This document shows positions 8,725 to 60,506 of a stretch of 64,000 nt of DNA, piece by piece; position 1 is the first letter of the stretch; each line of letters opens with the position of its first letter. The notes under the pieces were generated by a model that saw only the letters and a list, made by a program, of their open reading frames with translations, made no database searches and had not been told where the DNA came from. The stretch spans positions 15,815-79,814 of the forward strand of contig CAWWAF010000001.1 of assembly GCA_963934795.1 (NCBI GenBank), in the 5' to 3' direction. This stretch comes from an uncultured bacterium. Lineage in GTDB: Bacteria > Acidobacteriota > Vicinamibacteria > Vicinamibacterales > UBA8438. Both the position numbers and the translations under genes were made by a program.

Positions 8725-8743
8725 GGCGGAAGCTGGCCTGTGT

Positions 8744-10084
8744 CTACAGGAGCCCGGGCAAGGTATCGATCGGCAGCGCCCCAGAACTGCCGCCGAGCTT
8801 CTCGACCGGCACACCCATCTTGTCCATGAGCGTCACCAGCAGGTTCGCCATCGACGGCTCGTCCGTGAACCTCAGATGCCGCCCGCTGGGCAGGCGGCCG
8901 GCGCCACCGCCGACCAGCATCAGGGGCAGATCGACGCCTGAGTGGCGTGTGCTGTTCGAAATGCCGGAGCCGTACAGGATCGTCATGTGATCGAGCAGCG
9001 ACCCGTCCCCGTCCGGTGTGGCGCGTAGCTTCGTCAGATACCGCGAGAACAGATCCGTGTGGTACGTGTTGATCTTGGACATGTGCAGGATCAACTCCGG
9101 CACGTCGTTGTGGTGCGACAGCGGGTGATGCGCCTCCGGCACCCCGATCTGCGGATACGGCCGGGCGCTCTGTTCCTTGCCGATCATGAAGGAAATGACG
9201 CGAGTCAGATCCGACTGCATGGCCAGCAGTTGCAGGTCGAGCATCAGCTCAAGGTGGTCCTCGAACACCGACGGAGCCCCCTGCGGCTGGCCAATGGTCG
9301 GCAGCTCGAGATCGCTCTGCTCCTCCGCCCGTTGGATACGTCGCTCGACGTCGCGAATCGCCTCGGTGTATTCCTCCACCTTGGTCTGGTCGCCGGGTCC
9401 GAGTTCCCGCCGCAACGCCGCCAGCTTGTCGCCGACGGAGTCGAGCAAACTCTTGTGCTGCCGCAACCGGCTCTCACGAGCGGCACGATCCGTGGTGCCG
9501 CTGTCACCGAACAGTGTTTCGAACACCGCGCGCGGATTCCACTCGGTTGGCAGCGGCTGCGTGGCGCTGCGCCACGAGAGGGTGTGGGTATAGACGCAGC
9601 TCAGGTTGCCGGTGCACGCCCCCGCGTTGTTCGGCGGATCGAGTGACAGCTCCAGCGACGGCACCTGTGTCTCCTCCGCGAAGTGCCGGGCCAGCAGCTG
9701 ATCCATCGAGACATCGGCCACGATCTCGATCTCGTTGCGGCCCCCGCGTGTGGTGCCGGTCAAGAACGACCCGGACGCCCCCGCATGGATGTAATTCCAG
9801 CTCGAGTTCAGACCGGACAGCACGATCATCTGGTCTTTGAATGCCGCAAGCGGCGCCAGAATCGGCGACAGCTCGAAGCTCGTTCCCTCCCCCTTGGGCG
9901 TCCAGTGCTCCATGGCCATGCCGTTGGGCACGTAGAAGGCCTGAAACCGGTGCGGGGCGGTGGTCGCGGCACGCGCGCGAGCCGTGAACACCGGATGCAT
10001 CGCATCGAGGAACGGCAGCGCGACGGTTGCGCCCAAGCCTCGAAGCACCGTTCGACGCGGCAACGTCTTGGTCAGGAAGGTCAT
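8744..10084 (-). CDS. DUF1552 domain protein with a Tat-like signal; module copy 1.
   Basis: Contains MTFLTKTLPRRTVLRGLGATVALPFLDAM and ...HHPLSHH... Highly similar to 52756..54099. Start trimmed to ATG 10084, 11 nt after the upstream stop. Confidence 0.9.
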   Translation of the reverse strand: MTFLTKTLPRRTVLRGLGATVALPFLDAMHPVFTARARAATTAPHRFQAFYVPNGMAMEHWTPKGEGTSFELSPILAPLAAFKDQMIVLSGLNSSWNYIHAGASGSFLTGTTRGGRNEIEIVADVSMDQLLARHFAEETQVPSLELSLDPPNNAGACTGNLSCVYTHTLSWRSATQPLPTEWNPRAVFETLFGDSGTTDRAARESRLRQHKSLLDSVGDKLAALRRELGPGDQTKVEEYTEAIRDVERRIQRAEEQSDLELPTIGQPQGAPSVFEDHLELMLDLQLLAMQSDLTRVISFMIGKEQSARPYPQIGVPEAHHPLSHHNDVPELILHMSKINTYHTDLFSRYLTKLRATPDGDGSLLDHMTILYGSGISNSTRHSGVDLPLMLVGGGAGRLPSGRHLRFTDEPSMANLLVTLMDKMGVPVEKLGGSSGALPIDTLPGLL

Positions 10085-10095
10085 TCGAGCTCTTT

Positions 10096-12660: not shown

Positions 12661-12758
12661 AGGAAACCACCCCAATTGTGCCTGATCCTCGACGCGCCGG
12701 TAAAGGCGCAAACTGCCCACCCGCCGCACGGTAACGAGAACTGTGTGATCATGTTGTT

Positions 12759-14357
12759 GTGGTTCGCCGTTGGTTCTACGGGTGCTCGACACTCCTCCTG
12801 ATCGGAATCCTCGCGGCGTCTGCCGTCATCCCTGCCATTCTCTGGGCACTGCTGATCGTCGGTCCGCTCATGCTGGTCGGTGTGTACGACGTCACACAGC
12901 GCCAGCACACCATCCTGCGGAACTTTCCGATCATCGGGCACGGTCGCTACCTCTTCGAACTCGTGCGGCCCGAGATTCAGCAGTACTTCATCGAGTCCAA
13001 CACCGACGCCTTTCCCATTGAGCGGGAGTTTCGAGACCTCGTGTACCAGCGGTCGAAGGGCGACCTGGAGACCCAGCCGTTCGGCACGCAGCGAGACGTC
13101 TACCGCCTGGGTTATGAGTGGGCCGCGCATTCGCTGGCCCCGGTCGTGCCGCTCGAGACCCCACCGCGTATCCCGATTGGCGGCGCCGACTGTCGCCAGC
13201 CCTACGACAGTGCGCTGCTCAATATTTCCGCCATGAGCTTTGGCTCGCTGTCCAGTCACGCCATCATGGCCCTCAATGGCGGGGCCAAGGCGGGCGGCTT
13301 CGCGCACAACACCGGCGAGGGTGGCATCTCGCCGTATCACCTGGAGCAGGGCGGTGACCTGATTTGGCAGGTCGGCACCGGGTACTTCGGGTGCCGCACA
13401 TCGGACGGACGGTTTGACCCCGATCGCTTCGCGGACCAAGCGGCGCACAATACGGTGCGAATGATCGAGCTCAAACTGTCGCAAGGCGCCAAACCTGGGC
13501 ACGGCGGCGTCCTGCCAGGCCGCAAAGTCTCGGCGGAGATCGCCGCGATTCGCGGCGTGCCGATAGGGGAAACGGTGCTCTCCCCACCGGGGCACCCGGG
13601 GTTCACCACCCCGACCGGTCTGCTGGAGTTCGTAGCGCGGCTACGGGCGCTGTCAGGCGGAAAGCCGGTCGGTTTCAAGCTGTGCATCGGGCAGCGGACC
13701 GAATTCCTGAGGCTGTGTAAGGCGATGCTCGACACCGGTATCCTCCCCGACTTCATCACGGTCGATGGGAGTGAGGGCGGCACCGGCGCAGCGCCACTGG
13801 AGTTCGCCAATTCGGTCGGGATGCCAGCGCGCGATGGGTGGATGCTCGCGCACAACGCGCTCAGAGGGGTACGGCTCCGAGACCGCATCACGATCATCGC
13901 GTCCGGCAAAATACTGACCGGATTTGATATGGCGCGGGCGCTCGCGCTCGGCGCCGACGTGTGTCTCTCCGCGCGAGGAATGATGCTGGCGCTGGGCTGT
14001 ATTCAGGCGTTGCGCTGTCACTCGGACCATTGCCCTACCGGGATCGCAACACAGAACCCGGCGTTGGTGCACGGTCTCGATGTCGACGCCAAAACGCCAC
14101 GCGTCACCAGGTTTCAGGAGGCGACGGTGAGGAGCTTGTTGGAGCTGCTGGGAGCGATGGGACTCTCGCACCCCAATGCGCTGGGCCCCCAGCACATCTT
14201 TCGTCGCATCAGCGACAGCCGCGTGCGCACCCTTCAGGACCTCCACGAGTTTATCCCTGAGGGCGCGCTGCTCGACGGCGGCGGCGAGGGGCCGTGGCAC
14301 GAGGATTGGCGGACGGCCTGTGATTGCACCCTGTGGCGAGAGGCGGAGCAAATATGA
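12759..14357 (+). CDS. FMN-binding glutamate synthase family protein (GltB domain-2-like) with an N-terminal membrane anchor.
   Basis: 532 aa. Contains TILRNFPIIGHGRYLFE..., ISAMSFGSLS, KLSQGAKPGHGGVLPG and VDGSEGGTGAAP. Confidence 0.9.
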   Translation: MVRRWFYGCSTLLLIGILAASAVIPAILWALLIVGPLMLVGVYDVTQRQHTILRNFPIIGHGRYLFELVRPEIQQYFIESNTDAFPIEREFRDLVYQRSKGDLETQPFGTQRDVYRLGYEWAAHSLAPVVPLETPPRIPIGGADCRQPYDSALLNISAMSFGSLSSHAIMALNGGAKAGGFAHNTGEGGISPYHLEQGGDLIWQVGTGYFGCRTSDGRFDPDRFADQAAHNTVRMIELKLSQGAKPGHGGVLPGRKVSAEIAAIRGVPIGETVLSPPGHPGFTTPTGLLEFVARLRALSGGKPVGFKLCIGQRTEFLRLCKAMLDTGILPDFITVDGSEGGTGAAPLEFANSVGMPARDGWMLAHNALRGVRLRDRITIIASGKILTGFDMARALALGADVCLSARGMMLALGCIQALRCHSDHCPTGIATQNPALVHGLDVDAKTPRVTRFQEATVRSLLELLGAMGLSHPNALGPQHIFRRISDSRVRTLQDLHEFIPEGALLDGGGEGPWHEDWRTACDCTLWREAEQI

Positions 14358-18624: not shown

Positions 18625-18999
18625 ATGATGACCATTCGACCTTACACATTGGCTGCCTCCACCCTGATCATCGCGCTGGCCGCGGCGGCCACATTGTCGG
18701 CGCATATGGCCTACTCGAAGAGCATGCCCGCCAAGGACGCGACGTTGAGCGAGTCGCCCGGTCACGTGCAGGTGTGGTTTACCCAGGACCCTGAACCGGC
18801 CGTGAGTCAGCTCTCGCTGGAGGGACCGAATGGCGAGATCGCGCTAGGCGAGACAACGGTCGGCGACGAGAAGTCGCTTGTCGCGACTGTGCCAGCCGCT
18901 CTCGCGCCTGGCAGCTACACCGTCAAATGGCGCTCCGCTGGTGACGACGGTCATGTGCTTCGAGGCGACATCGCATTTTCGGTCCGCGCGGCCGAGTAG
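18625..18999 (+). CDS. copC: Copper resistance protein CopC (periplasmic Cu-binding).
   Basis: 124 aa. The signal peptide ends ..ATLSA|HMAYSKS, which would leave His as the mature N-terminus. Typical CopC core: PGSYTVKWRSAGDDGHVLRGDIAFSV. Confidence 0.85.
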   Translation: MMTIRPYTLAASTLIIALAAAATLSAHMAYSKSMPAKDATLSESPGHVQVWFTQDPEPAVSQLSLEGPNGEIALGETTVGDEKSLVATVPAALAPGSYTVKWRSAGDDGHVLRGDIAFSVRAAE

Positions 19000-19050: not shown

Positions 19051-19452
19051 TCACCGTGGCGGACGTTGCACGGTGAAGGTGACGGTGCCAGACTGTTTCT
19101 CGCTGTCGGCGCGGTCAACGGTCCAGGTCATCGTCCACTCGCCATTGGGCATGGGTCCGGTGACCCGACCCATAAGATCATTCTCCCCCATGGTGTGGAG
19201 GCCCTCGATCCTGGCGCGGTTGCCCGGCCCGGAGATCTCGAGCGTGCTCCCCTCAACGGGCGGGGCGAGGTCGAACCAGACCCGTACCGTTCGGACCGGC
19301 CCGTCGAGCGCGGCACCATCCTCCGGCGTGCTGCCAGCCAGCGTGATCTGAGCGGACACCGGTGTCGCCAATAGGGCGAACAGGGCGACCGCCGCGAACG
19401 CCCGAGCCATACGGGCAAGCGGTCTGCGCCGCTCCGAAAGTACATCCGTCAT
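19051..19452 (-). CDS. CopC-domain-like periplasmic protein lacking the N-terminal His.
   Basis: 133 aa with signal peptide ..LATPVSA|QITLAGSTPEDGAALDGPVRTVRVWFD. It has a CopC-like beta-sandwich pattern (NGEWTMTWTV) and is convergent with copC. Confidence 0.65.
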   Translation of the reverse strand: MTDVLSERRRPLARMARAFAAVALFALLATPVSAQITLAGSTPEDGAALDGPVRTVRVWFDLAPPVEGSTLEISGPGNRARIEGLHTMGENDLMGRVTGPMPNGEWTMTWTVDRADSEKQSGTVTFTVQRPPR

Positions 19453-21252: not shown

Positions 21253-23700
21253 TTGTTCTCGACTGTGTCTTCGACTGCCCGTGCTCTCGCTCTTCTGTTG
21301 GGCGCGGTGCTGCTCACGCCGGCATCCACCACAGCCCAACCGCCGTCCAGCGTGACGGGCCAGGTCATCGATGGTGTCACTGAGGCGCCGTTGGAGGACG
21401 CGCGTGTCGAAGGCGCCACCGACACGGTCGTCACCGAGTCTGGCGGTCGTTTCTCCATCGACGTAGGAGCGGCCGAGACCACCTTGCGGGTTCGGGCGAC
21501 CGGCTACCTGGACACGGTCGTGCCCGTCGACAGCCTAGAGCTGGTCATTCGGTTGTTTCCCAACAGGTTCGCAGAGACCGTCGAGGTGGTCTCTGCACCC
21601 GATGCGCAGGAGCGGCCCTCGTCGACACCGGTGAGTCCAGCCGAGGTCTTTCGCGCCCCCGGGAGTATCGACAATGTCTTTCGGACGCTCAACACCCTCC
21701 CGGGGGTCGCCTCCACGGACGACTTCGGTAGCCGGCTCGCGGTACGCGGCGGCACCCCGGACCAGAACTTGACGGTGATGGACGGCATCGAGGTGCACAA
21801 TCCGTATCGCCTCTTCGGCATTGCCAGCGCATTCAACCCAGAAACCGTCGAAGGTTTTCAACTCAGCGCCGGCGGCTTTGGGGCTGCTTACGGCGACCGG
21901 CTGTCGTCGCTGCTGATCGTCGAGAACCGTCCGGGGCGTCCGACATTCGCGGGGGCCGGATCGGCGAGTGTGACGGACGCCAACGTCGTGCTGGAAGGAG
22001 CCACGCCGGGCGGACACAACGGCACCTGGCTTGTCAGCGCCCGCCGCACCTACTACGACCTCGTCGCGGGGCGCCTGCAAGATCAGAATTTTCCATCGTT
22101 CGCGGACCTCCAACTGCGGGCGGGCTGGGAGTTTGGGCCGGGCCACCGTCTGACCCTGACCGGACTTCGCAGCGTGGAGGACGCCGACCTGGACATAGAC
22201 GGCGACCGGGACGACGAGCGGGCGGCGCTCGGGTCAGACGTGACGAACGGGCTTGCCTCGGCCCGGTTGGACGCGGTGCTCGGGGCGCGCGCCACGTCGA
22301 CGACCATCGTGTCCTGGTATCGCAACCGGGAGCAGCTCAACTTCGACGGCCTCGTGCGCGCGGACGCGAGACGTTCGAATGCACCGGACAACGATGTCGC
22401 GTTCGAGCTCAGCACGATTCTGTTCGACCGCTCGCTCGATATCGGCGACGTCTCAGCCCGGCAAGAGCTTGGCGTACAGGTGTCTCCCCGTCATCTGCTC
22501 GGCGCCGGCATCGAGGTGCACCGCCTTGATACGCGCGTTGGATTCACCCTCAGGGGCGACAGGAACGACACGCAGGCCAACGGATCGAGCATTCAGGGCG
22601 GCGCCGGACTCCCGGACGACCTGCAGTCTGCACTCCGCGGGACTCGCGGCGGCCTCTGGCTCAAGGACACGTACACGCCGTCATCCCGCGTGTCGTTCGA
22701 ACCGGGCCTGCGTCTGGACTGGAGCACCATCAACGGCGACATGGCACTGTCCCCCCGGATCGCGCTGAGCTACGCCCTGGGCCGCGGCGCCCGTGTGCGC
22801 GCCGCGGGCGGGTTATACACGCAGAGCCCCGGCTACGAGAAGCTCACACAGTCGGACTACTTCATCGACCTGTCCGGGGCCCATGACGGTGGTCTGCTCC
22901 ACGAGAAAGCCACGCACGTCGTGGTTGGCCTGGAGCAGGCGCTGGGTCGGGACCTGACTGCGCGGATCGAGGGCTACTATAAGGGTTTCAATGATCTACT
23001 CTTGGGCCGCCTCGAGAACGAGTCTGAACGACTCGAGCGAGTGTCTCAGTACGATTTTCCGGAGCCCTTGCGCGACGACGTGCCCACGGCGCCGCTGATT
23101 TTGAGCGCCCCGACGAACGACGCCGGTGGCATCGCCTACGGCCTGGACCTGTTCTTCAGCCACAGCAACGACGCGGCGCCACTCACCGGATGGCTCTCGT
23201 ACGCCTGGGGACGGGCCACGCGCGAGAGTTACGGTCGACGGTACGCCTTCGAGTACGACCGCCGCCACGCATTCAACGCGGTCGGCCGATACCGGCTCAC
23301 CCGTCGGTGGGACGTGGCCACGACGTTCCGCGTCGCCAGCGGCTTTCCGCACACCGCGCCACTCGGGGTCCGGGTTTCGGCGGTCGAGGACGACCGGGGC
23401 CGGCTCGTGCCAGGGACCGACTCTGTCGGGAATTTGATCTACACCGTGGACTACGGCGGCCTCGACAACCTGAACGCGGCCAGACTGCCCCACTATGCCC
23501 GAGTCGATGTCCGGGGAACCTATCGGAGAGGCCGCTGGTCGTTCTACGTTGAGGTGCTCAATCTGTTGGGTCGAGACAACGCGGTTGTCCTGGAGCCACG
23601 ACTCCGACACAACCCGGACGCGGCCCTGCCGCAGGTCTTTGAGACGGCGTCTCAAGGGTTCCCGCGCATACCGACATTCGGGCTGCGCGCACGCTTCTGA
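21253..23700 (+). CDS. TonB-dependent receptor with an N-terminal carboxypeptidase-regulatory-like domain.
   Basis: 815 aa. Signal peptide, then VTGQVIDGVTEAPLEDARVE. Plug region (PGVASTDDFGSRLAVRGGTPDQNLTVMDGIEVHNPYR). Ends in a beta-barrel terminal ..GLRARF. Confidence 0.9.
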   Translation: MFSTVSSTARALALLLGAVLLTPASTTAQPPSSVTGQVIDGVTEAPLEDARVEGATDTVVTESGGRFSIDVGAAETTLRVRATGYLDTVVPVDSLELVIRLFPNRFAETVEVVSAPDAQERPSSTPVSPAEVFRAPGSIDNVFRTLNTLPGVASTDDFGSRLAVRGGTPDQNLTVMDGIEVHNPYRLFGIASAFNPETVEGFQLSAGGFGAAYGDRLSSLLIVENRPGRPTFAGAGSASVTDANVVLEGATPGGHNGTWLVSARRTYYDLVAGRLQDQNFPSFADLQLRAGWEFGPGHRLTLTGLRSVEDADLDIDGDRDDERAALGSDVTNGLASARLDAVLGARATSTTIVSWYRNREQLNFDGLVRADARRSNAPDNDVAFELSTILFDRSLDIGDVSARQELGVQVSPRHLLGAGIEVHRLDTRVGFTLRGDRNDTQANGSSIQGGAGLPDDLQSALRGTRGGLWLKDTYTPSSRVSFEPGLRLDWSTINGDMALSPRIALSYALGRGARVRAAGGLYTQSPGYEKLTQSDYFIDLSGAHDGGLLHEKATHVVVGLEQALGRDLTARIEGYYKGFNDLLLGRLENESERLERVSQYDFPEPLRDDVPTAPLILSAPTNDAGGIAYGLDLFFSHSNDAAPLTGWLSYAWGRATRESYGRRYAFEYDRRHAFNAVGRYRLTRRWDVATTFRVASGFPHTAPLGVRVSAVEDDRGRLVPGTDSVGNLIYTVDYGGLDNLNAARLPHYARVDVRGTYRRGRWSFYVEVLNLLGRDNAVVLEPRLRHNPDAALPQVFETASQGFPRIPTFGLRARF
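23640..23654. promoter_or_regulatory. Candidate distal operator site TGAGACGGCGTCTCA, a perfect palindrome, inside the 3' end of the TonB-receptor CDS.
   Basis: Same TGAGAC-N3-GTCTCA pattern as the site at 23798..23812. Lies about 100 nt upstream of the predicted feo -35 element. Confidence 0.35.
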
Positions 23701-23755: not shown

Positions 23756-23783
23756 TTGACCGACCAAATTGGCGCGATATAAA
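23756..23783 (+). promoter_or_regulatory. Predicted sigma70-type promoter of feoAB (TTGACC-N16-TATAAA).
   Basis: TTGACC at 23756..23761 and TATAAA at 23778..23783, in a locally AT-rich stretch. The -35 context TTGACCGACCAAATTGG resembles TTGACGACCAAAGTGG in the promoter at 60456..60484. Confidence 0.45.
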
Positions 23784-23797
23784 ATGAGCTCCGAAAC

Positions 23798-23812
23798 TGA
23801 GACTGAGTCTCA
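23798..23812. promoter_or_regulatory. Palindromic operator TGAGACTGAGTCTCA just downstream of the predicted feoAB -10 element.
   Basis: Perfect inverted repeat TGAGAC/GTCTCA, 14 nt after the -10 and 22 to 37 nt before the feoAB start. Related sites lie at 23640, 60428 and 60492. Confidence 0.55.
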
Positions 23813-51039: not shown

Positions 51040-52677
51040 CTACGGCCCAACCGTTGGCATCTGGATGCCACGGTCCGTCGGGTCAAACACCGCTTCCATC
51101 TTGGCGTCGCGATCGGCCACGAACTGAATCTGGTCTCGCCGCGTTTGCAGACAGTCGTGGCAGACCGATCCGGGCACCGTGTGCCCATCGCCCTCGGCAC
51201 TGATACCCCGCTCAGCCATGAGCGCCTCCAGGTGGGCTGCCGTGAGCACCTGCGCCTTGTAGAAATCGGAATAGCTCAGGCCGCGGGCAATGGCCAGTGG
51301 CGACCACCCATCCACGGTGCGCGCGTCGAGATCGGCGCCCTGAGCGACCAGGTAGTCAACCACTTCGTTGGCTCCCCGGAAGGCAACCCCATGAAGCGCG
51401 GTCTCGCCACGATAGTTCGCGGCGTTCACGTCGTTCCCGACCTCGACGAGCATGCTAACGGCTTCGAGCACCTCATCCTCCTGACCCGGAAGAGACCCCC
51501 CGTCCTCGCCAGGATTCCAGAGAGCCAGGCCGGCCGCCACCATCAACGGCGTCGTGCCGTCGGCGCTGGGCATCAGCGGATCAGCACCAGCGTCAAGCAG
51601 GACCCGCATCGCCTCGACATCGGTCACCTTCGACGCCAGCATGAACGGGGTGGCGCCGAGCCGATTGAATCGGTTCCGCTGACCGTCCCGCATCCCATTG
51701 CGGGTCATTCGTGTATTGACCTCGACCCCGTCCGCCAACAGCCTTCGGATGAAATCGATGCTATCGAGGGTGCCCGAGGCAAACGGCCCAGGGGTGCCAA
51801 ATCCGACATTCATGCGGCGGGTGCGCACCGCTTGATGCAACGCGTTCCAGCCCGCCCCGGCATGGTTCGGGTCGGCGCCACGGTCGAGCAAGTAGGCGGC
51901 CAGCTCCCAATTGGCGTTGGCGGCCGCAATCACTAGCGCGCTCTGGCCGTCCGATACGGCGTCGTTGATATCGGCCCCGGCGTCCAACAGCACCGTGGTC
52001 GTCTCGAAATGCCCACTCCGCACGGCGAAGAGTAGCGGCGTGAAACCGGTGGCTGGCAGGCTCGCGAAGGTCCGGCCGCGCCCTGGCGGAGGATTGTCGG
52101 TCCGGGCATTGATGTCAGCCCCCAGCTCGGCCAGCGCGTGAACCACGGCCGCGTTGTTCTTCGCGGCCGCCCACATCAGTGCCGTCTGGCCGCGCAGCGC
52201 CTCGCGCGCGTTCGGGTCCGCACCACGCAGGAGCAGCACGCGGACCGCATCCGGGTCTCCAGTACGCGCGGCGGTCATCAGTACCGTCTCGCCTCCCGGC
52301 ATCGTGCGGTTCGCGTCCGCACCCGCATCGAGGAGCCGTTGCAACATCGGCGCGTCGCCATTTTCAGCCGCCAACCACACCGGGCTGACACCGTGTCTGT
52401 TCGCGGAGGTGACGTCGGCACCGGCCTCCAGCAGCAGATCGACCATCTCGGGTCGCTGCTCGTGCACCGCCCACTGCAACGCCGTCGACCCGTCGCCCAT
52501 GCGAACGTCGACGTTATCCGTCTCGTCGAGGATGCCACGCACGGCGTCGAGAGCACCACGACGCACCGCATCGATGAGCGGCGAATCAGCTGGGGCCAGG
52601 GCCACCAGTGAGGTCGACCCTGCCAGCCCCACGGCGACAACCAACAGCCCGACCGGCGCGATTCGCAGTAGTCTCAT
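51040..52677 (-). CDS. Exported ankyrin-repeat protein; third gene of module copy 2.
   Basis: Signal peptide MRLLRIAPVGLLVVAVGLAGS. Many ANK repeats. Long collinear similarity to 7351..8724 (for example RGQTALMWAAA in both). Confidence 0.85.
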   Translation of the reverse strand: MRLLRIAPVGLLVVAVGLAGSTSLVALAPADSPLIDAVRRGALDAVRGILDETDNVDVRMGDGSTALQWAVHEQRPEMVDLLLEAGADVTSANRHGVSPVWLAAENGDAPMLQRLLDAGADANRTMPGGETVLMTAARTGDPDAVRVLLLRGADPNAREALRGQTALMWAAAKNNAAVVHALAELGADINARTDNPPPGRGRTFASLPATGFTPLLFAVRSGHFETTTVLLDAGADINDAVSDGQSALVIAAANANWELAAYLLDRGADPNHAGAGWNALHQAVRTRRMNVGFGTPGPFASGTLDSIDFIRRLLADGVEVNTRMTRNGMRDGQRNRFNRLGATPFMLASKVTDVEAMRVLLDAGADPLMPSADGTTPLMVAAGLALWNPGEDGGSLPGQEDEVLEAVSMLVEVGNDVNAANYRGETALHGVAFRGANEVVDYLVAQGADLDARTVDGWSPLAIARGLSYSDFYKAQVLTAAHLEALMAERGISAEGDGHTVPGSVCHDCLQTRRDQIQFVADRDAKMEAVFDPTDRGIQMPTVGP

Positions 52678-52755
52678 CTCGATCTCCCAGTGCCCGCAGA
52701 TGCGGGTGCGACGAACCAGCACAGCCGCTCCCCATGTCTGGCGGCCGCCACTGTC

Positions 52756-54099
52756 CTACAGATCCGCTAGTCGCCCCGTACTGTCCGACACACGGTCGAC
52801 ACGTGCGCCCACCTTGTCGAGCAGGCTCACCCCCAAGTTCATGAACGGGGTGTCGAGCTCGTATTGCAGATGGCGTCCGCCGACGAGCTGTCCGTTGCCA
52901 CCACCAACCAGCGTGACGGGCAGGTTGTAGGGCGTGTGATGATCGCCATCCCCCATGCCCGTGCCATACAGCAGAATCGTGTGGTCGAGCAGCGTGCCGT
53001 CGCCGTCCGGCGTGTTGTGCATTTTCTCGACCATCTGTGCGAAGAGCGACATCTGGTGCGTGTTGATCTTCGTGTACTGCTCGATATTGTGCGGATCGAG
53101 TTGATGGTGCGACACGCTGTGGTGTGCCTCGGGCACGCCAATCTTCGGGTAGGTGCGCCCGCTCAGCTCGCGAGCCATCTGGGTGCAACTCACCCGGGTG
53201 ACGTCTGCCTGGTAGGCCAGCACCAGCATGTCGAACAGCAACAACACATGTTCGTCGTACTCTTCGGGCACGCCGCCTGGCTGCTCGACCGCGGGCAAAG
53301 GTGTCGCCGCATTGCCCTGCTCGGCCCGCTGAATCCGCCGTTCGATCTCCCGCACGGCGTCGAGATATTCCTCGACCGACGATCGGTCCCGCAGACCCAA
53401 GCGACGCTCGAGACGGGCAATACTCTCGGTCACGGAGTCGAGAATGCTGCGGTCGGTCTGCATCTGCGCCAGACGCGCTTCCATGCTGCCGCCATCGCCG
53501 AACAGACGCTGAAACACCACGCGCGGATCACGCTCGTGCGGTAGTGGCGTGGTCGCGGTGCGCCAGGACGTCGAATTCTGATAGGTGCAGCTGTAGCCGT
53601 TCTCGCAGTTCCCTACCGTGAAGTTCGATTCAGTCGTCAGCTCAAGCGACCGCAGCGAGGTGTCGGCACCCAGCGTGTCGGCGGCGTACTGGTCAATGGT
53701 CTTGCCGGCCTCGATATCCGCGCCTTCCGTCCGTTTGGGAAGCACACCGCTCAGCCAACCCCCGTGGGCGCGGGTGTGTACCCCGCCGCCTTCATTCGTG
53801 CTCACGAGACCACGGTTGCTCAGACCGCTCACCACCACCAACTGATCACGGTAGGGCTCGAGCGGCTTGAGAATCGGAGACATCTCGAAATCCCGCCCTC
53901 CGCCGCCGGCCGGGTGGAAGTTCGGCAGGAACATGCCGTTGGGCGCATACACGAACCCGAGCCGTGGAATGGGGTTCGCCGCGGTGCGCGCCGTGGCCGT
54001 CAGTGCGGGCGCCATGGCGTCGAGGAACGGCAGGGCGACGGTGGCACCGATGCCTCTGAGCACGGTCCGGCGCGGCAGCGCCTTCTTGGTGACAATCAT
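52756..54099 (-). CDS. DUF1552 domain protein with a Tat-like signal; module copy 2.
   Basis: Contains MIVTKKALPRRTVLRGIGATVALPFLDAM and HHSVSHH. The start overlaps the upstream stop by 4 nt. Confidence 0.9.
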   Translation of the reverse strand: MIVTKKALPRRTVLRGIGATVALPFLDAMAPALTATARTAANPIPRLGFVYAPNGMFLPNFHPAGGGGRDFEMSPILKPLEPYRDQLVVVSGLSNRGLVSTNEGGGVHTRAHGGWLSGVLPKRTEGADIEAGKTIDQYAADTLGADTSLRSLELTTESNFTVGNCENGYSCTYQNSTSWRTATTPLPHERDPRVVFQRLFGDGGSMEARLAQMQTDRSILDSVTESIARLERRLGLRDRSSVEEYLDAVREIERRIQRAEQGNAATPLPAVEQPGGVPEEYDEHVLLLFDMLVLAYQADVTRVSCTQMARELSGRTYPKIGVPEAHHSVSHHQLDPHNIEQYTKINTHQMSLFAQMVEKMHNTPDGDGTLLDHTILLYGTGMGDGDHHTPYNLPVTLVGGGNGQLVGGRHLQYELDTPFMNLGVSLLDKVGARVDRVSDSTGRLADL

Positions 54100-56555
54100 G
54101 ACTCGCTTCTCCTGTGCAAGAACGGATAGCTGTTCACGATGCCGATCACGATGGCATGCATCCCGTGGTCGTCCTCCGACGCCTCACGCACGATGCGCCG
54201 CACCGCCGGCATGTCGTAGTAGTCCAGGCCGCGGCCCAACGCATAGGTCAGCAGCTTCTCGGTCACGGTCGTGGCGAAACGATCGGGGCGCTCAACGAGC
54301 GCCGCCCGCAGTTCGGCCACGCCATCGAACGCCGTCCCATCCGGCAACACTCCGGATGTGTCCAGCACGTTGAACGACTCGTCCACCACGCGCGAGCGAC
54401 CGATGGCGTCGAACCGCTCCAGCGCGAATCCGGCCGGATCGATCATCGAATGACAGGCGGCGCAGGCGGGATTCGCCCTATGCGCCGACATCCGCTCGCG
54501 CATCGTCGCCACTTTGGCCTGGGTCTTCTTGTCGTTCAGCGCAGGAATCCCTGGCGGCGGATCGGGAGGTGGGGTGCCCAGAATGTTGTTGAGAATCCAC
54601 TTCCCACGGAGCACCGGCGAGGTTCGGATGGCGTGCGACGTCAGGGTCAGGATGCTGCCGTGACCCAGCAAACCACCACGAGCGCTGTCGGCCGGCAGGG
54701 CAACCCGGCGAAAGTGGCTGCCCTGCACGTTGGGAATGTCGTAGTGGTCGGCGAGGCGCTCGTTGAGGAACGTGTAGTCGGCCGTCAACAGATCGAATAC
54801 CCCACGATCCTCACGGACGACACTGTCGAAGAACAACTCGGTTTCGCGCAGCATGGCCTGGCGCAGGGTCTCGTCGAACGCCAGCGCATACGGGTCACCC
54901 GGCCGAACCACCTGCTCGAGGTTGCGAAGCTGCAACCACTGTCCGGCAAAGTTACGCGTGACAGACTCCGACCGAGCATCCGCAATCATCCGACGTGTCT
55001 GTTGCTCAAGAACCGCCGGGTCGCTCAGTGCGCCGCGCTCGGCCAACGAGAGCAGCTCGTCGTCAGGGATGCTGCTCCAGAGGAAGAAGGAAAGCCGGGA
55101 GGCCAGCTCGAGGTCGGTCACTTGATAGGACGCGCCCGGGGGCGAGTCTGCCGGGTCTCCTTCGATGCGCAGGAGGAATTCGGGGCTCACCAGCAGGCGC
55201 CGTAGCCCCATTTCGATACCCGCTTCGAAAGTGGCCCCGTCGCCACGACCCATCTCGTAGAAGCGGAGCAGTACATCGAGATCGGTACCGGACACCGGCG
55301 CCCGATAGGCGCGTCGCGCCAGCGTCGACAAGATGGTTCGCGCGCAGGCTAGCTCGTCAGCCGGAGTGGCCGGACGGCAGGAAAAAATGCGGTCACGGCT
55401 CGGCGTCTGCCCCGGCCCTCTGGCGTCGTGCGGCCCGGAGATACTCACGGTGCTGACGAATGGCAGGCTCCCACCCGGACCACCAGCGTTCCCGGACGTG
55501 CGGGGATTCTGGAAACGCTCTCGAACCTGTTCGACCAGCACCGGAGGATTCCGCGAAAAGGCCAGGGCCAGCTCGTGCCGCCCGGCACCGACGGGCACGC
55601 GCAAGTCGAGCCTGCCACCGGTGAGATACGGATTCGGCTCGCCCTCGCTGGGCGCGGGCCCCAACGTGTAGTGTTCGACCGGCTCCCCATCCAGGGTCAC
55701 CTCCAGCCGATGTTCTTCGCGCAGTCCTCGGTTGCCGTTCAATTGAACATGAACGTCATAGGCGGCATCGAGCGGAAAGAGATAGTCAACCAGCATTCCA
55801 CCCCGGGTGCCGAACGGCAGGCCTTGTGCGCGTTGATGCTGCTGCTCGTCCTGCGCCGCACGAAACGTCTCGGATACCACCCCCGGCGGTGGACTACCGA
55901 CGGCCAGCCGGCTAATCGATCGACTTGCGGCCAGATACCGCTCCAGCAGCGACTGCGACATCCGCAGCACGCCGCCGATGTTGTCGAAACCGAAACTCGC
56001 GTCGTCGGCCGGCAGCAGGTCGTCAACATCAACCTCAAGCGCCAGCAGATCCCGAACGGCATTGCGGTACTCGGTGCGGTTCAACCGGTGTAGAGCCACG
56101 GTTCGGCCGGGGTCCGGTGCCGCCATCCAGTTGCTGTCCAGTTGCGCTTCCAGCCACGACCGGAACCCGTCCAGCGTGGCCTCATCCGGCCGTGGGCGCC
56201 CGGCGGGCGGCATCAGCCCCGCGCGGAGCTTGCGTACCACCTGTTCCCAATGCTGTGCCGCATCGCCAACGCGGGACAGGTCGAGCGTATCGAGGCTCAG
56301 CCCGACCGCGCGCAGCTGAGACACCATGGGCGTGCGAGGAGCGTCGGTGCCGTCCACCACCGCCTCGCTGTGGCAGGTGACGCAGTACTGATCCAGCATC
56401 GCGGCGTAGGCGTTCACAGGCTCGTCGGCGGCCGTCGGCTGGGCTGCCGCCGCGCCGCCATACAGCAAGGCGGCAGTCAGCAAAGCCGCCGCGACCGCCC
56501 GGGCGCCGTGGATGCTTGTCAATTGCACTCCAGAAACGTCAACAGTGCTTTCCAT
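54096..56555 (-). CDS. DUF1592/DUF1595/DUF1587/DUF1588/DUF1585-family protein with two CxxCH motifs; module copy 2.
   Basis: 819 aa. Contains YCVTCHS near the N-terminus and CAACHSMIDPAGFALERFD near the C-terminus. Collinear with 10096..12660. Confidence 0.9.
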   Translation of the reverse strand: MESTVDVSGVQLTSIHGARAVAAALLTAALLYGGAAAAQPTAADEPVNAYAAMLDQYCVTCHSEAVVDGTDAPRTPMVSQLRAVGLSLDTLDLSRVGDAAQHWEQVVRKLRAGLMPPAGRPRPDEATLDGFRSWLEAQLDSNWMAAPDPGRTVALHRLNRTEYRNAVRDLLALEVDVDDLLPADDASFGFDNIGGVLRMSQSLLERYLAASRSISRLAVGSPPPGVVSETFRAAQDEQQHQRAQGLPFGTRGGMLVDYLFPLDAAYDVHVQLNGNRGLREEHRLEVTLDGEPVEHYTLGPAPSEGEPNPYLTGGRLDLRVPVGAGRHELALAFSRNPPVLVEQVRERFQNPRTSGNAGGPGGSLPFVSTVSISGPHDARGPGQTPSRDRIFSCRPATPADELACARTILSTLARRAYRAPVSGTDLDVLLRFYEMGRGDGATFEAGIEMGLRRLLVSPEFLLRIEGDPADSPPGASYQVTDLELASRLSFFLWSSIPDDELLSLAERGALSDPAVLEQQTRRMIADARSESVTRNFAGQWLQLRNLEQVVRPGDPYALAFDETLRQAMLRETELFFDSVVREDRGVFDLLTADYTFLNERLADHYDIPNVQGSHFRRVALPADSARGGLLGHGSILTLTSHAIRTSPVLRGKWILNNILGTPPPDPPPGIPALNDKKTQAKVATMRERMSAHRANPACAACHSMIDPAGFALERFDAIGRSRVVDESFNVLDTSGVLPDGTAFDGVAELRAALVERPDRFATTVTEKLLTYALGRGLDYYDMPAVRRIVREASEDDHGMHAIVIGIVNSYPFLHRRSES

Positions 56556-56640: not shown

Positions 56641-57711
56641 CTAGTTAGGGCCGCGTTGGACGGGCATCCCGAGCCGGTCGTTGACCTGTTCGGTGGCCCG
56701 TGGAAACCGACGCTCAAACGCCACGGTGGCGCGGGCCGTCAGACCATTGCCGGTGGCCTCGGTGGACGGCGCCAGAAAGAGCGCGGCCAAATCGCGGGCC
56801 TCGGCGAAGTGCACCCCGTCTTCGGGCCCCAGAACATACAGCGCCGTCGACAGCAGGTCCGCGACGAGGGGGTCCTGGTGCCAGACTGTCACTGATTCCG
56901 GGCGGTAGAGCGCGTCGCCCGATCGCGGATCCAGGATATGGGCGATTCGTTCACCGTCCACGCTGAAAGAGCGTTCCGATGCTCCGCTGGTAGCGAGCGA
57001 CCCCTCGATCAGCACAATGTCCATGGCAGGCTGGCTCCTGCGGGCCGGATCGGCAATGGCAAACGGCCAGCCCTCGGAATGTCTCGTGGCCGCCGACACA
57101 GCGACCTGACCGCCGAGATCTACCCACCACGGGAAATTGCTCTCGCCGTCGGCTTGCAAACGGCGCAAAGCCTCGCCCTTCCCGAAAGCCCCGGCATCGA
57201 GCGTGACGTCTGCCAGCCGCGTCACCCGGCACGCTCCTGTTTCGGAGTTAAACGCGAAGTGGTGAAATCCAGACACCGCGCGCGCTGTTAGAAGTTCGGC
57301 CTCGGATGGGCGTCGCCCCCCGTCCCGTAGCCCCCAGGCCTCGATCAGGGCACCCACGGCTGGGTCGAAAGCGCCGTCTGTTTCCACATGCCACCGGGTC
57401 AATATTGCCCAGAGCGCGCAGACGTCCTGCCCGACCTCAAACGGGTCGCCCACGGGTTGACGATTGAGGCGGCCGAGCTCGGTGTTCTCACGCCACGTGC
57501 TGAGCGTGGCCTCGCTCTGCTCCAGGCGCCGAACCATGCGGTCTAGCTGATTCAGCGCGGCGACCCGGTCCGGCGCGTGGACCGCGAGCGTCGCGCGCGT
57601 CCCCATCAGGTAAAGCGTGCGCTCGACTTCAACCGGACCGGCAGCCAGGAGCGAATACAGGAGCAATGGAGAGAGCGTGCCGAGCGCGACGAGGCTCGGC
57701 ACGCGGCTCAC
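56641..57711 (-). CDS. apbE: FAD:protein FMN transferase (ApbE family).
   Basis: 356 aa. Contains LMGTRATL, DGAFDPAVG, LDAGAFGKGEA, VDLGGQV and LATSGASERSF. Confidence 0.9.
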   Translation of the reverse strand: MSRVPSLVALGTLSPLLLYSLLAAGPVEVERTLYLMGTRATLAVHAPDRVAALNQLDRMVRRLEQSEATLSTWRENTELGRLNRQPVGDPFEVGQDVCALWAILTRWHVETDGAFDPAVGALIEAWGLRDGGRRPSEAELLTARAVSGFHHFAFNSETGACRVTRLADVTLDAGAFGKGEALRRLQADGESNFPWWVDLGGQVAVSAATRHSEGWPFAIADPARRSQPAMDIVLIEGSLATSGASERSFSVDGERIAHILDPRSGDALYRPESVTVWHQDPLVADLLSTALYVLGPEDGVHFAEARDLAALFLAPSTEATGNGLTARATVAFERRFPRATEQVNDRLGMPVQRGPN

Positions 57712-58184
57712 GCCGAGATGCCGACCTTGCTGGGAAACATGCTGGTGGAGTCTGACGACGCTCGACCAAGACGCCAGCTGATGAAGAGGTGCGCGCTGTA
57801 GCCGACGACGAACATGACACTGGTCGACACATGGGCCCAGACCATGGCCGTCACGAATTCAGGTGTCGATGCCACCTGCAGCAAGTAGCCGGACAGGGCC
57901 ATTGCCGAAAAACTAAGCAGTGACATCCAACCGGACCGCCGGTTCCTTGCACTCGGCGAGATGAGCTTCTTCAATGTGTGCGAACGAAACACCATGCCGA
58001 AAAAGGCAATGAAGACCGGCGCGGCAAGCAGATGCAGGGAGAGCATGGCCGGCTGCCACGGATGATTGATGACCGCGAACGGGTCAACCGCGGTCACGGC
58101 GTACTTCATGTAGAAATACGCGAGGCCGGTCACGGTCACGACGCCGTGCAAACCATTGAACGCCCACTGTTCCCACCACTTCAT
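57708..58184 (-). CDS. Small 4-TM membrane protein with intramembrane histidines (possible b-type heme carrier).
   Basis: 158 aa. His residues sit in predicted TM1 (NGLHGV), TM2 (LSLHLL) and TM4 (WAHVS, YSAHLF). It has 4-nt overlaps with both neighbouring genes. Confidence 0.7.
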   Translation of the reverse strand: MKWWEQWAFNGLHGVVTVTGLAYFYMKYAVTAVDPFAVINHPWQPAMLSLHLLAAPVFIAFFGMVFRSHTLKKLISPSARNRRSGWMSLLSFSAMALSGYLLQVASTPEFVTAMVWAHVSTSVMFVVGYSAHLFISWRLGRASSDSTSMFPSKVGISA

Positions 58185-58744
58185 CGGGCTACCGCTCCAC
58201 CTTCTTCTCGGCCGCGTTCCAACACCTGGTCCATCGCCAACACCCGTCGCACAGCGGCGTTTGCCGCACCCGTCGTCAGCGTGCCGCCGAGAATGGGCTG
58301 TATCGCCCGCTGCACGGCCAGATCGTCGGTCAGAAGCTGTTTGTAGTACTGCTGCAACCAGTTCTGCGCCGGTTGATACTCGGGCGGCTCCTGAAAGGCC
58401 GTCACTTCGATCCGCTTCACGCTACCGTCAGGCTCGAGTGAAATCAGCAAGCTCTCCATTTTGGTTCGGACGACGTGGGTGTCGATGTAGGCGCGTCCCA
58501 CGGTCCGTCCACCCTGCGTCGCGACGTAGCGAGCCACGAGCGCGCTTCTCACCTCGCCCCCCGCCAGCTCGCCGATCCGAACCATCTGCTGCTCGGTCAA
58601 GAACACGCGTTCCGCTTCAATCCCCGCGTGCGGAAACACGGCGGCCAGAGCCTCCTCCCGAGTCATCTGGCCGCCCTGGGCAACTACGACCACCGTGGTC
58701 GTCACAAGCATCAACGACGCGCACATTAAGGCCACTCGGATCAT
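58181..58744 (-). CDS. Exported FMN-binding domain protein, a likely ApbE flavinylation substrate.
   Basis: 187 aa with a signal/anchor (ALMCASLMLVTTTVVVVA). FMN_bind-like core. ILGGTLTTGAAN resembles the [S/T]GA[T/S] flavinylation motif. Confidence 0.75.
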   Translation of the reverse strand: MIRVALMCASLMLVTTTVVVVAQGGQMTREEALAAVFPHAGIEAERVFLTEQQMVRIGELAGGEVRSALVARYVATQGGRTVGRAYIDTHVVRTKMESLLISLEPDGSVKRIEVTAFQEPPEYQPAQNWLQQYYKQLLTDDLAVQRAIQPILGGTLTTGAANAAVRRVLAMDQVLERGREEGGAVAR

Positions 58745-58756
58745 GCCAACCTCGCC

Positions 58757-60235
58757 CTAGAAGGCGTACCCCATGCTCACGTTGAACTGGTTGACGCCGG
58801 TCTCTGCGTCGTTGCTGACCCAGGCGTGGTCCACCTTCACTACGATTTGGGAAATTGGCTTCAACTCAATACCCACCGTAAGAAACGTGTTATCTGTCGA
58901 GAGGCTGCGGGACAGGCCGTCCGGCACTCGGTCCTGAGTATCCACCTGCTCGTAGCGAACATACGGCGTCAGCGCGACTCCAGCGGAATCCGTCTGCGAG
59001 AGCACGTTGTAACCCACTTGAATGTAGGCCCCCTGCATCCGTTCACCAACACCGTTACCGAGCAGCTGATTAAGCTGAGCCGCGTCGTCGAGGTGGGCCC
59101 TGGCGAAAAGCCCCCGCACGTCCAGTCCGCGCACTTGCGCGGCACCATGCAGGTCGAAAATGGTCGTTCGAACGCCATACTCAGCGCCATCAACCACCAC
59201 CTGACCCTGTCCTGAATCACCGGTATACAAGCTAGCTCCCACAAACACTCCGGGGGTCGGCGTAACGTCGACGCGTCCGGTGAACGCCATACTCGTGGCC
59301 TTGGCCTTGTTGCCTTTCTGGCGGCCGCCGCGTACCCCCTTCGAGGAAAAGTCGAGACCGTCAAATCCGTTCATGACATAGGCCCGGAACGACACGCGGT
59401 CGAACGCTCCGTATATGCCGGCTCCATTTTCTCGCCACGTCGACGGGATAATCCGTTGTTCGGTCACCGGACGCTCGGCACCGAGGAAGACGGTCGGCTC
59501 ATGGAACTCGTTGACCAGTCCCATGGGCGCCAGCAACATACCGCCGCGCACCCCCATGTTGTCAGTCGCCTGGTAGTCCAGGTATGCGAACTCCACGTAA
59601 ATCTCATCGGCGTGCTCAATCTCGATTTCCGAGTTGAACAGAAACTTGTCGTTGAAGCGGTACCCCGCGTAGATGATGGCGCGAAGAAAATCGGCCTTGG
59701 TCGTTTGCCCTGTTGCGGCCCCGCCTTCGTTCTCGTCTGCGTAATTTTCGAAGAGCATCTCACCATACCCGGCAATGGAGACCCCTTGACCTCGGCTGTA
59801 GGTGGACGCCGCCGACGGAGCGAGTCCCAACCGGCGGGCATCGTCCACACTGACCGGCTGTACCCCTTCTCCTTCTCCACTACGGAGGCGCTCGACCTCA
59901 TCGGCCAACAGGTCAACACGGCGCTGTAACTCCTCAACATCCGATGGTTGCTGCTCCGTTTCGGCAGCGCCGCACGCAGCGGGTGCAATATCCACCTCAA
60001 CCTCGGCCGATGTGCGCTCGGTGACCTCTTCGGAAGCGCCGACTGGAGCTCCGTCCGTGTTGCCGACAATGCCGCACGTAGCGGGTGCGATATCCGCCTC
60101 AGTCTCGGCCGATGTGGGCTCGGTGACCTCTCTAATCTGCGTTTGCGCGGTCGCGCTCGTGGCGAGGGCGCACAGCGCCAACGCCGGAATCATCTGATTG
60201 CGCCAGAAATAGCCCTGGTGTGTCTTTGTCGTCAA
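58757..60235 (-). CDS. Outer-membrane beta-barrel porin (porin O/P-like) with an N-terminal repeat and a coiled-coil segment.
   Basis: Signal peptide MIPALALCALATSATAQ. Coiled-coil ELQRRVDLLADEVERLR. Alternating beta-strand pattern ending in ..NVSMGYAF. Start is either TTG 60235 or ATG 60193. Confidence 0.8.
   Translation of the reverse strand: MTTKTHQGYFWRNQMIPALALCALATSATAQTQIREVTEPTSAETEADIAPATCGIVGNTDGAPVGASEEVTERTSAEVEVDIAPAACGAAETEQQPSDVEELQRRVDLLADEVERLRSGEGEGVQPVSVDDARRLGLAPSAASTYSRGQGVSIAGYGEMLFENYADENEGGAATGQTTKADFLRAIIYAGYRFNDKFLFNSEIEIEHADEIYVEFAYLDYQATDNMGVRGGMLLAPMGLVNEFHEPTVFLGAERPVTEQRIIPSTWRENGAGIYGAFDRVSFRAYVMNGFDGLDFSSKGVRGGRQKGNKAKATSMAFTGRVDVTPTPGVFVGASLYTGDSGQGQVVVDGAEYGVRTTIFDLHGAAQVRGLDVRGLFARAHLDDAAQLNQLLGNGVGERMQGAYIQVGYNVLSQTDSAGVALTPYVRYEQVDTQDRVPDGLSRSLSTDNTFLTVGIELKPISQIVVKVDHAWVSNDAETGVNQFNVSMGYAF
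59969..60131. repeat. Two copies of a 61-nt direct repeat (period 102 nt) inside the porin gene.
   Basis: 59969..60029 and 60071..60131 align with few mismatches (gccgcacg[c/t]agcgggtgc[a/g]atatcc[a/g]cctca..ctcggccgatgtg.gctcggtgacctct). They encode VTE[P/R]TSAE[T/V]E[A/V]DIAPA[T/A]CG twice. Confidence 0.75.
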
Positions 60236-60427
60236 GGGTTTGTCTCTCGGTTGCGGTTGCGCGCCCTGACGATCATCTCTACAATAAGCACCACTGATGT
60301 CATCAGCTCACGCGACCTGGTTCCAAACTGCGTCTTAAGGGAAGCGGCGAGTGACCGCTCAGTTGGCCCGCCGGGTGTGACAGCACCCGCGGGCCATTTT
60401 TGCTACACACTCAAACTGAATCAATAA

Positions 60428-60442
60428 TGAGACTCGATCTCA
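60428..60442. promoter_or_regulatory. Operator site TGAGACTCGATCTCA, just downstream of the predicted -10 of the porin operon.
   Basis: Inverted repeat TGAGA-N5-TCTCA. Read on the minus strand, it starts 13 nt after the TATAGT -10. This is the same relative position as the feoAB site. Confidence 0.55.
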
Positions 60443-60455
60443 ATTTGATATCGCA

Positions 60456-60484
60456 ACTATATATCCGACCACTTTGGTCGTCAA
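60456..60484 (-). promoter_or_regulatory. Predicted sigma70-type promoter of the porin/FMN/4-TM/apbE operon (TTGACG-N17-TATAGT on the minus strand).
   Basis: On the forward strand, cgtcaa lies at 60479..60484 and actata at 60456..60461. This is the most AT-rich stretch in the window. The -35 context matches the feoAB promoter. Confidence 0.45.
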
Positions 60485-60491
60485 TAGAAAA

Positions 60492-60506
60492 TGAGACTGG
60501 ATCTCA
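60492..60506. promoter_or_regulatory. Operator site TGAGACTGGATCTCA, immediately upstream of the predicted -35.
   Basis: Second copy, 64 nt from the first. Both copies are preceded by tcaata..aatgagact. Confidence 0.5.

Follow-up and report, generated by a model that had tools for sequence, protein, structure and literature searches.

Which regulator reads the two palindromes of one kind that lie at either end of positions 60,428–60,506 of this Vicinamibacterales contig, and what is the operon behind them for? The window, that is, the whole stretch of 64,000 nt that was analysed, carries at this place the promoter of a four-gene operon on the minus strand (an outer-membrane protein (OMP) as probable first product, a flavin mononucleotide (FMN)-binding protein, a four-helix membrane protein (4-TM) and the flavin transferase ApbE). 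The two 15-bp palindromes were confirmed as real, conserved features that bracket a near-consensus sigma-70 promoter. They are very probably the operators of an iron-sensing repressor of the Fur family, in an acidobacterial version of the 7-1-7 Fur box; the family is predicted because the genes that carry the box, the boxes found at fur genes and a core identical to that of Caulobacter Fur sites all point to it.

Read on the minus strand, the region has the order TGAGATCCAGTCTCA, 7 nt, TTGACG, 17-nt spacer, TATAGT, 13 nt, TGAGATCGAGTCTCA. The distal Fur-type box TGAGATCCAGTCTCA (60492..60506) is centred at about −50 from the predicted start site; the −35 hexamer TTGACG (60479..60484) was located by a consensus scan, and its TTGAC is invariant in a profile of 94 promoters; the −10 hexamer TATAGT (60456..60461) follows the family pattern TAnncT; the proximal Fur-type box TGAGATCGAGTCTCA (60428..60442) lies 13 nt 3' of the −10 hexamer, at about +7 to +21 of the predicted transcript. 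The predicted sigma-70 promoter TTGACG-17-TATAGT was also called by an independent consensus scan (10/12 matches). Its spacer holds a further palindrome, ACGACCAAAGTGGTCGG (60465..60481, minus strand; ACGACC-AAAGT-GGTCGG, family consensus CCGACC-N5-GGTCGG), a candidate second operator. A first-pass annotation of this DNA had described the same operator twice, and both 15-mers were indeed found on the minus strand where it had placed them; its distance of 13 nt between −10 and proximal box was reproduced, as was its statement that the region is the most AT-rich of the window (AT-richest segment 60396-60495 at 60, 80 and 100 nt; GC 0.32–0.35 vs 0.65 overall). Its only slip was a gap of 8 nt between the distal box and the −35 hexamer, which is 7 nt long (TTTTCTA). 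The exact pattern TGAGA-N5-TCTCA occurs four times in the window (the two boxes at 60428-60506, 23798-23812 and 23640-23654) vs 0.02–0.04 copies expected per 64 kb, and no site was gained when one mismatch was allowed.

Conservation was examined in 80 orthologous loci taken from reference genomes, nearly all of Vicinamibacterales/Vicinamibacteria (Acidobacteriota); single loci are given below as L plus a number. In all, 129 exact boxes were counted in 1.0 Mb of these loci. Two boxes (≤1 mismatch each) were present ≤800 bp upstream of the orthologous gene in 54 of the 80 loci, spaced 62–68 bp apart in 51 of these 54 (mode 64), and a single box in a further 19. The few seemingly boxless Vicinamibacterales loci had a variant repeat with a centre 1 nt shorter, or no upstream sequence; the box was absent from the homologue loci of Latescibacterota and Gemmatimonadota. 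Upstream of the OMP gene in L009, L017 and L027, box variants with a 4-nt centre were seen (e.g. TGAGATCAGTCTCA; 7-0-7 instead of 7-1-7). Across the loci the promoter is constant base for base at key positions and variable elsewhere. For comparison with other promoters, metagenomes were scanned with the pattern TATA, 14–18 nt gap, box, with no other requirement, and 120 loci were returned. Of 59 OMP-locus promoters, 47 have the distal box, at −25 to −28 relative to the spacer palindrome, as against 2 of the 35 module promoters from the metagenome scan (one of the two being itself an OMP promoter). It is almost specific to this operon; being common at OMP promoters and rare elsewhere, the doubling of the box is thus a conserved speciality of the operon.

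The same type of promoter cassette stands before feoAB on the plus strand (TTGACCGACCAAATTGG..., 23756..23812; TTGACC, −10 TAAAAT and box), its proximal box being TGAGACTGAGTCTCA (23798-23812) and its spacer palindrome half-degenerate (CCGACCAAATTGGCGCG). The −35 context that had been reported as common to the two promoters is the palindrome CCGACC-N5-GGTCGG, which fills the promoter spacer; the feoAB promoter itself was as described. An equal distance from box to −10 in both promoters had also been proposed: it is 13 nt at the operon, as given, and 12–14 nt at feoAB, depending on the hexamer chosen; counted in the register of the palindrome, the two offsets are 37 and 38 nt. With the same box in the same promoter cassette before both, the placing of the operon and feoAB in one regulon stands. 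The fourth exact box of the window, TGAGACGGCGTCTCA (23640..23654, plus strand), which the first-pass annotation did not mention, lies inside the 3' end of the open reading frame (ORF) of a TonB-dependent receptor, 158 bp upstream of the feoAB proximal box. Such a second, distant box was absent from 7 metagenomic feoAB loci, the promoters of which are single-boxed; it is not general among feoAB loci. At 64 bp and 158 bp, the two spacings come close to an integral number of helical turns. Two convergent CopC-domain genes (18625-18999, plus strand; 19051-19452, minus strand) lie some 4 kb upstream of the feoAB locus, with no box nearby.

By downstream family, the metagenome loci contained TonB-dependent receptors (18), ZnuA-like binding proteins (11; low-GC genomes only), the OMP family of the window operon (9), PepSY_TM proteins (8), FeoAB (7), FTR1 permeases (5), Fur-family regulators (5) and a Bfd-like ferredoxin (1). 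Across genomes the box lies 12–16 nt 3' of a −10-like hexamer or overlaps it. Extra boxes in the orthologous loci precede genes for the P19/FtrA Fe2+ transport protein (PF10634), a secreted CbiX-like protein, a DUF6787 membrane protein and an S-adenosylmethionine methyltransferase (box-preceded neighbour genes in other Vicinamibacterales: L061:3287-4240, L061:5021-5425, L063:4321-5055 and L025:293-1120; Fur box without spacer palindrome). A perfect box was found 10–30 nt upstream of the fur start codon in the Acidobacteriota loci L154, L202, L205 and L206 (L203 and L204 are duplicates of L202); FTR1 follows these boxed fur genes, which are annotated in their sources as Fur family ferric uptake regulator, from Thermoanaerobaculia or an 'Acidobacteria bacterium'. 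In L206 (5968-10576) a single perfect box is followed by one operon fur-FTR1-ApbE-OMP-FMN-4TM, the proteins of which have 46% (OMP), 43% (FMN), 39% (4TM) and 35% (ApbE) identity to those of the window. A box before fur was thus seen outside Vicinamibacterales, and not for any Vicinamibacterales fur gene; the Fur of L127/L099 was considered as the acidobacterial Fur and rejected, since it is Omnitrophota-like.

From 113 sites unbiased for flanks and centre, the symmetrised acidobacterial consensus aaNTGAGAYYNRRTCTCANtt was obtained. The box accordingly has the build of a Fur box, an inverted repeat of 15–19 bp (7-1-7 or 9-1-9) in which TGA...TCA is outermost; its sites lie at core promoters of iron-acquisition genes, and its position before fur genes is of the autoregulation type. 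That the regulon is one of iron, which had first been argued from feoAB, now rests on the box-preceded genes, the perfect boxes at Acidobacteriota fur genes and the core shared with Caulobacter Fur sites. Fur as the family of the regulator, the spacer palindrome, the operon-specific doubling and the second feoAB box were not named in the first-pass annotation.

The classical Fur box of Escherichia coli and Bacillus subtilis is, in the 7-1-7 reading, TGATAATnATTATCA. The acidobacterial box has the same length and symmetry, with TGA.A.T / A.T.TCA in common (10/14 specified positions), and the same regulon logic, with fur autoregulation and repressor-type placement; its half-site differs by G for T at position 4 and Y for A at position 6, and the site is GC-richer. 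The Fur-alpha class of boxes was described by Rodionov et al. (2006; PMC1698941), and gel-shift-validated Fur sites are available for Caulobacter crescentus, e.g. ATTGAGAACCATTCTCAAA and TTTGAGAATGGTTCTCAAT, with symmetrised consensus ATTGAGAATGATTCTCAAT (da Silva Neto et al. 2009; PMC2724300). In these the core TGAGA-N5-TCTCA is identical to that of the acidobacterial box and lies within a longer inverted repeat; like the acidobacterial boxes, they occur at promoters of TonB-dependent receptors, bfd and other iron genes, and their variant TCGCA is also tolerated in acidobacterial distal boxes. The two differ after TGAGA, where the acidobacterial boxes prefer a pyrimidine (A in 6% of sites) and Caulobacter prefers A; in the flanks (aaN vs AT); and in that the acidobacterial boxes, which are predicted sites in Acidobacteriota, form part, unlike those of Caulobacter, of a fixed promoter cassette that holds another palindrome. 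DtxR/IdeR, FNR and LexA boxes were rejected for want of a sequence match; a mobile or repetitive extragenic palindromic (REP)-like repeat was rejected, the arms being fixed, the centres and linkers variable and the copy number one per locus; an extracytoplasmic function (ECF) sigma promoter was rejected, the spacing of the conserved blocks being unlike −35/−10 of ECF type. A literature search for the box sequence and for the spacer palindrome and the module gave no relevant paper.

The spacer palindrome was found in 94 distinct promoters, among them 35 from the metagenome scan, which did not select for it. Between the invariant arms of the palindrome lies a variable, A/T-rich centre; the register is fixed, the left arm beginning at position 5 of the −35 hexamer and the right arm ending 3 nt short of the TAnncT −10; and in 87 of the 94 promoters the proximal Fur box follows at an offset of 36–39 nt from the palindrome start (mode 38). 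The palindrome is present at OMP, feoAB, TonB-dependent receptor and PepSY promoters, and absent from the fur, P19 and DUF6787 promoters that carry a Fur box; no non-iron promoter of the window or of some 1 Mb of flanking Vicinamibacterales DNA was found to have it, 25 'orphan' exact matches being GC-rich, coding-like sequence. In the OMP promoters of L013, L020, L028, L029 and L063 the distal box ends in TCGCA, an ending common in Caulobacter Fur sites, and the spacer is without the CCGACC-N5-GGTCGG palindrome; this subgroup is a natural test set for the idea of a second regulator.

The palindrome probably binds another repressor, for which an Rrf2/IscR-like, Fe-S-sensing co-repressor would be our best guess. 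Rrf2 repressors of iron-uptake promoters are known in alpha-proteobacteria, namely RirA, and IscR on Iron-Rhodo-boxes, and the palindrome shares with the IscR type-1 site/Iron-Rhodo-box the geometry GAC(C/T)-N7-(G/A)GTC, an A/T-rich centre, RR and then TAT on the 3' flank, and a placement between or over −35 and −10 (PMC6599224, PMC4618611, PMC1698941). Against the 25-bp IscR type-1 consensus ATASYYGACTRWWWYAGTCRRSTAT a mean of 18.6/25 matches was obtained vs a background of 8.3 ± 2.2, a score inflated by the AT-richness of the promoters; for the 15 consensus positions not used for selection the values were 10.4 vs 5.3 ± 1.7. Identity to the E. coli IscR consensus averages 74%, footprinted Pseudomonas aeruginosa sites having 68–76%, and the footprinted P. 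aeruginosa iscR site B, ATAGTTGACCTAATTACTCGGATAA, lies between −35 and −10 in the same layout. The fixed overlap of the palindrome with −35/−10 is what exclusion of RNA polymerase by an IscR/Rrf2 protein needs. It differs from IscR sites in its half-sites, which are mostly GACC/GGTC and not GACT/AGTC; in the missing 5' ATA, which is replaced by TTGA of the −35 hexamer; and in its constant co-occurrence with a Fur box at 36–39 nt offset. No Rrf2 homologue was detected in any collected locus (tblastn; queries E. coli IscR and SoxR, the query sequences being approximate), and clustering of the small ORFs near module promoters gave no recurrent regulator.

That the palindrome is no operator at all, being instead a feature intrinsic to this promoter class or the place where a spacer-remodelling activator of MerR type binds, appears somewhat unlikely to us. 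Its locked register to −35 and −10 would suit such a reading, and in the merO, copA and soxS promoters the left arm likewise starts at position 5 of the −35 hexamer. Rodionov et al. (PMC1698941) also cautioned that cTTGACgr may be conserved merely as −35. With 17 bp in the window and 18 bp in most members of the family, vs the 19–20 bp typical of MerR-type promoters, the length of the spacer argues against an activator site of this type. The palindrome is also absent from all other promoters of the window and the flanking DNA and from the Fur-boxed fur, P19 and DUF6787 promoters. Invariant arms around a variable centre are, moreover, typical of a dimeric DNA-binding protein, and the match to the IscR consensus is far above background. 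For the box itself three other readings were weighed, of which binding by a Fur paralogue for another signal (Zur, zinc; Mur, manganese; PerR, peroxide), with a regulon not primarily responsive to iron, is the least improbable, though improbable nonetheless. In low-GC contigs (0.33–0.37), many of them marine, a box pair TGAGATAAATTCTCA ... TTGACA ... TGAGACTTATTCTCA precedes a His-rich ZnuA-like gene (L084, L088, L135, L138, L146, L153, L160, L171, L174, L186 and L190), with a Fur-family gene near the pair in at least 8 of these 11 loci, the pair lying between the two genes; these loci are probably a Zur system that uses the same type of box. A paralogue is also favoured by the close likeness of the boxes of Fur, Zur and PerR, whose half-sites differ in only one or two positions. 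Among the high-GC, acidobacterial loci, however, the boxed genes are feoAB, FTR1, P19, siderophore-type TonB-dependent receptors, PepSY and bfd, with no zinc or manganese transporter, and the boxed fur heads an operon with FTR1.

Binding of the box by a RirA-type Rrf2 regulator is very improbable: the published RirA consensus TGA-N9-TCA does match the box literally (PMC1698941), and Rrf2 regulators are known repressors of iron-uptake genes, but the conserved positions reach over TGAGA/TCTCA plus YY/RR, as in Fur-alpha sites, the box stands before fur and beside Fur-family genes in several phyla, none of the collected loci has an Rrf2 gene, and close RirA orthologues are reported only in Rhizobiales (PMC1698941). 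The proximal box, a perfect inverted repeat downstream of the predicted start, might further be taken for a 5'-terminal hairpin of the RNA that acts on stability or translation, and not for a DNA operator. This is hardly credible, given that an identical box lies upstream of −35, outside the transcript, and that the position of the box varies relative to the promoter, even falling over −10 in low-GC genomes; the box arms are invariant, without compensatory change, the signature of protein-DNA recognition and not of base pairing.

Several points weigh against the assignment of the box to an iron-sensing Fur and against what is built on it. No fur gene was found in the window, in the 8 kb past its left edge (which contain no Rrf2 gene either) or in the Vicinamibacterales loci, and a Pfam search of about 38 window ORFs gave no transcription factor; the only Fur-family match in the Vicinamibacterales loci is a small Zur-like paralogue without a box, and the fur genes that do follow a box belong to other Acidobacteriota (Thermoanaerobaculia-like) and to other phyla. 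The fur gene of this genome not having been found, the link to the order therefore rests on evidence at the level of the phylum. The box between a Fur-family gene and a His-rich znuA in low-GC marine contigs means that the box type by itself leaves the metal unspecified; the spread of 62–68 bp in box spacing means that helical phasing is not strictly enforced; the transcription start is a predicted one; and it is from context that a role in iron reduction is ascribed to the operon.

Transcription is predicted to begin near 60449 on the minus strand, which would make the leader some 214 nt long. In the 192 nt that separate the start codon from the proximal box, it contains a conserved, GC-rich hairpin, GGCCCGCGGGTG-CTGTCA-CACCCGGCGGGCC (60365..60395, minus strand), preceded by an A-rich tract and followed on its 3' side by a conserved GCTGAACG-like stretch (CTGAGCG in the window). 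The hairpin is present in >60 of the 80 orthologous leaders in 43 distinct variants (mean ΔG −24 kcal/mol), with compensatory changes G-C/A-T and G-C/C-G; there is one copy per locus, plus one by another Fur-box promoter in L011. The pairing was derived by folding each sequence separately and counting anchored pairs; when a MAFFT alignment of the leaders was given to RNAalifold, the arms were mis-registered and 5 pairs only were returned, and this result was not used. Rfam at gathering thresholds gave no match in the whole window, and a permissive Rfam scan of the leader only a chance-level match to a small RNA (E = 1.1). In the sense direction the hairpin has no U-tract; its antisense strand would read as a canonical intrinsic terminator.

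The operon (minus strand) was described earlier as porin/FMN/4-TM/ApbE. The ApbE label was verified and so, by way of the ortholog profile, was the FMN-binding one; outer-membrane and 4-TM fit sequence features and secondary structure; a function as porin is no more than possible. Gene 1 (58757..60235) encodes a secreted protein of an unnamed family with >2,600 homologues (signal peptide, coiled-coil, beta-rich C-terminal part, end ...MGYAF; no Pfam match), probably an outer-membrane beta-barrel to judge from these features. Gene 2 (58181..58744) encodes a periplasmic, RnfG/NqrC-like FMN-binding domain protein with a flavinylation motif; alone it had no Pfam match, PF04205 (FMN_bind) was found in 25 of 26 orthologues, and the ortholog profile matches RnfG (9eri_G, E = 2.2e-6) with the flavinylated residue aligned. 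The motif is LGGTLT in the window vs AGATLT in the ortholog consensus, L-G-G-T of the window being a variant; the FMN_bind fold, the (S/T)-G-A-(T/S) acceptor motif and an ApbE gene two genes downstream together mark a protein probably flavinylated by ApbE. Gene 3 (57708..58184) encodes, by sequence features and secondary structure, a four-helix membrane protein with five invariant histidines, for which sequence and profile searches gave no Pfam or PDB relative and which may be considered a candidate haem-binding transmembrane electron carrier. Gene 4 (56641..57711; PF02424, E = 1.5e-50) is the ApbE flavin transferase, and its start codon overlaps the stop codon of gene 3. AlphaFold models of the OMP and of 4-TM, the latter from a single sequence, had a predicted local distance difference test of 40 and 63, respectively, which is inadequate for fold searches. 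In all 84 loci in which orthologues of genes 2 and 3 were detected, these follow the OMP gene directly on its downstream side. Two paralogous three-gene cassettes (51040-56555 and 7351-12792, minus strand; PSD/PSCyt with DUF1592 and related domains, DUF1552 and an ankyrin-repeat protein) are also present, one of them directly downstream of ApbE after a gap of 85 nt, with co-transcription with the iron operon possible either way.

Most likely the operon is an extracytosolic electron-transfer, ferric-reducing module that would feed Fe2+ to transporters such as FTR1 or FeoAB; the ferric-reducing path is suggested by the linkage to fur-FTR1 and by the published association of flavinylated proteins with P19/FTR1 iron assimilation (Meheust et al. 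2021; PMC8238504). The clusters described there likewise combine ApbE with an extracytosolic FMN-binding protein and are linked to FTR1/P19 and iron regulation; the present module adds an outer-membrane protein of its own and a new 4-TM protein rich in histidine, both absent from Pfam, and in the window, unlike those clusters, it stands apart from FTR1 and P19.

Being near-consensus, the promoter should be strong by default. As to the direction of regulation, we infer repression from established Fur biology: with Fe2+ plentiful, Fe2+-Fur dimers would occupy both boxes, the proximal one (about +7 to +21) blocking binding, initiation or escape of RNA polymerase and the distal one (about −50, some six helical turns away) adding cooperativity or polymerisation and so tightening repression, while a second repressor on the spacer palindrome would exclude RNA polymerase directly. 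When iron is scarce, Fur would leave and the operon would be transcribed; were the second protein an Rrf2/IscR-like Fe-S sensor, derepression would depend on two iron signals. The joint picture is tentative, possible rather than probable as a whole: a rigid cassette (−35, CCGACC-N5-GGTCGG, −10, Fur box 38 nt downstream) would be read by Fur for free Fe2+ and by an Rrf2/IscR-like Fe-S protein, so that uptake genes are on only when both pools are low; the distal Fur box would be a third layer and the structured leader RNA a fourth; and the operon would be a previously undescribed outer-to-inner-membrane flavin/haem electron conduit for reductive iron uptake in Vicinamibacteria-like Acidobacteriota.

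The box is ordinary in kind, since it is of a known Fur-box type and one would expect it upstream of iron-uptake genes; what merits follow-up is the fixed two-operator cassette, the box doubling peculiar to this operon, the structure in the leader and an iron-uptake module that had not been characterised. Vicinamibacterales abound in soil and sea and are almost uncultured, and we know of no account of their gene regulation. A first Fur-box consensus and Fur regulon for the order, derived from sequence alone, enables regulon prediction in hundreds of metagenome-assembled genomes, and a role in iron acquisition is assigned to a widespread, unnamed four-gene module that joins ApbE flavinylation to two families absent from Pfam. 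If the palindrome is bound by an Fe-S sensor, these promoters would offer a clear case from nature in which one fixed promoter architecture reads two iron signals.

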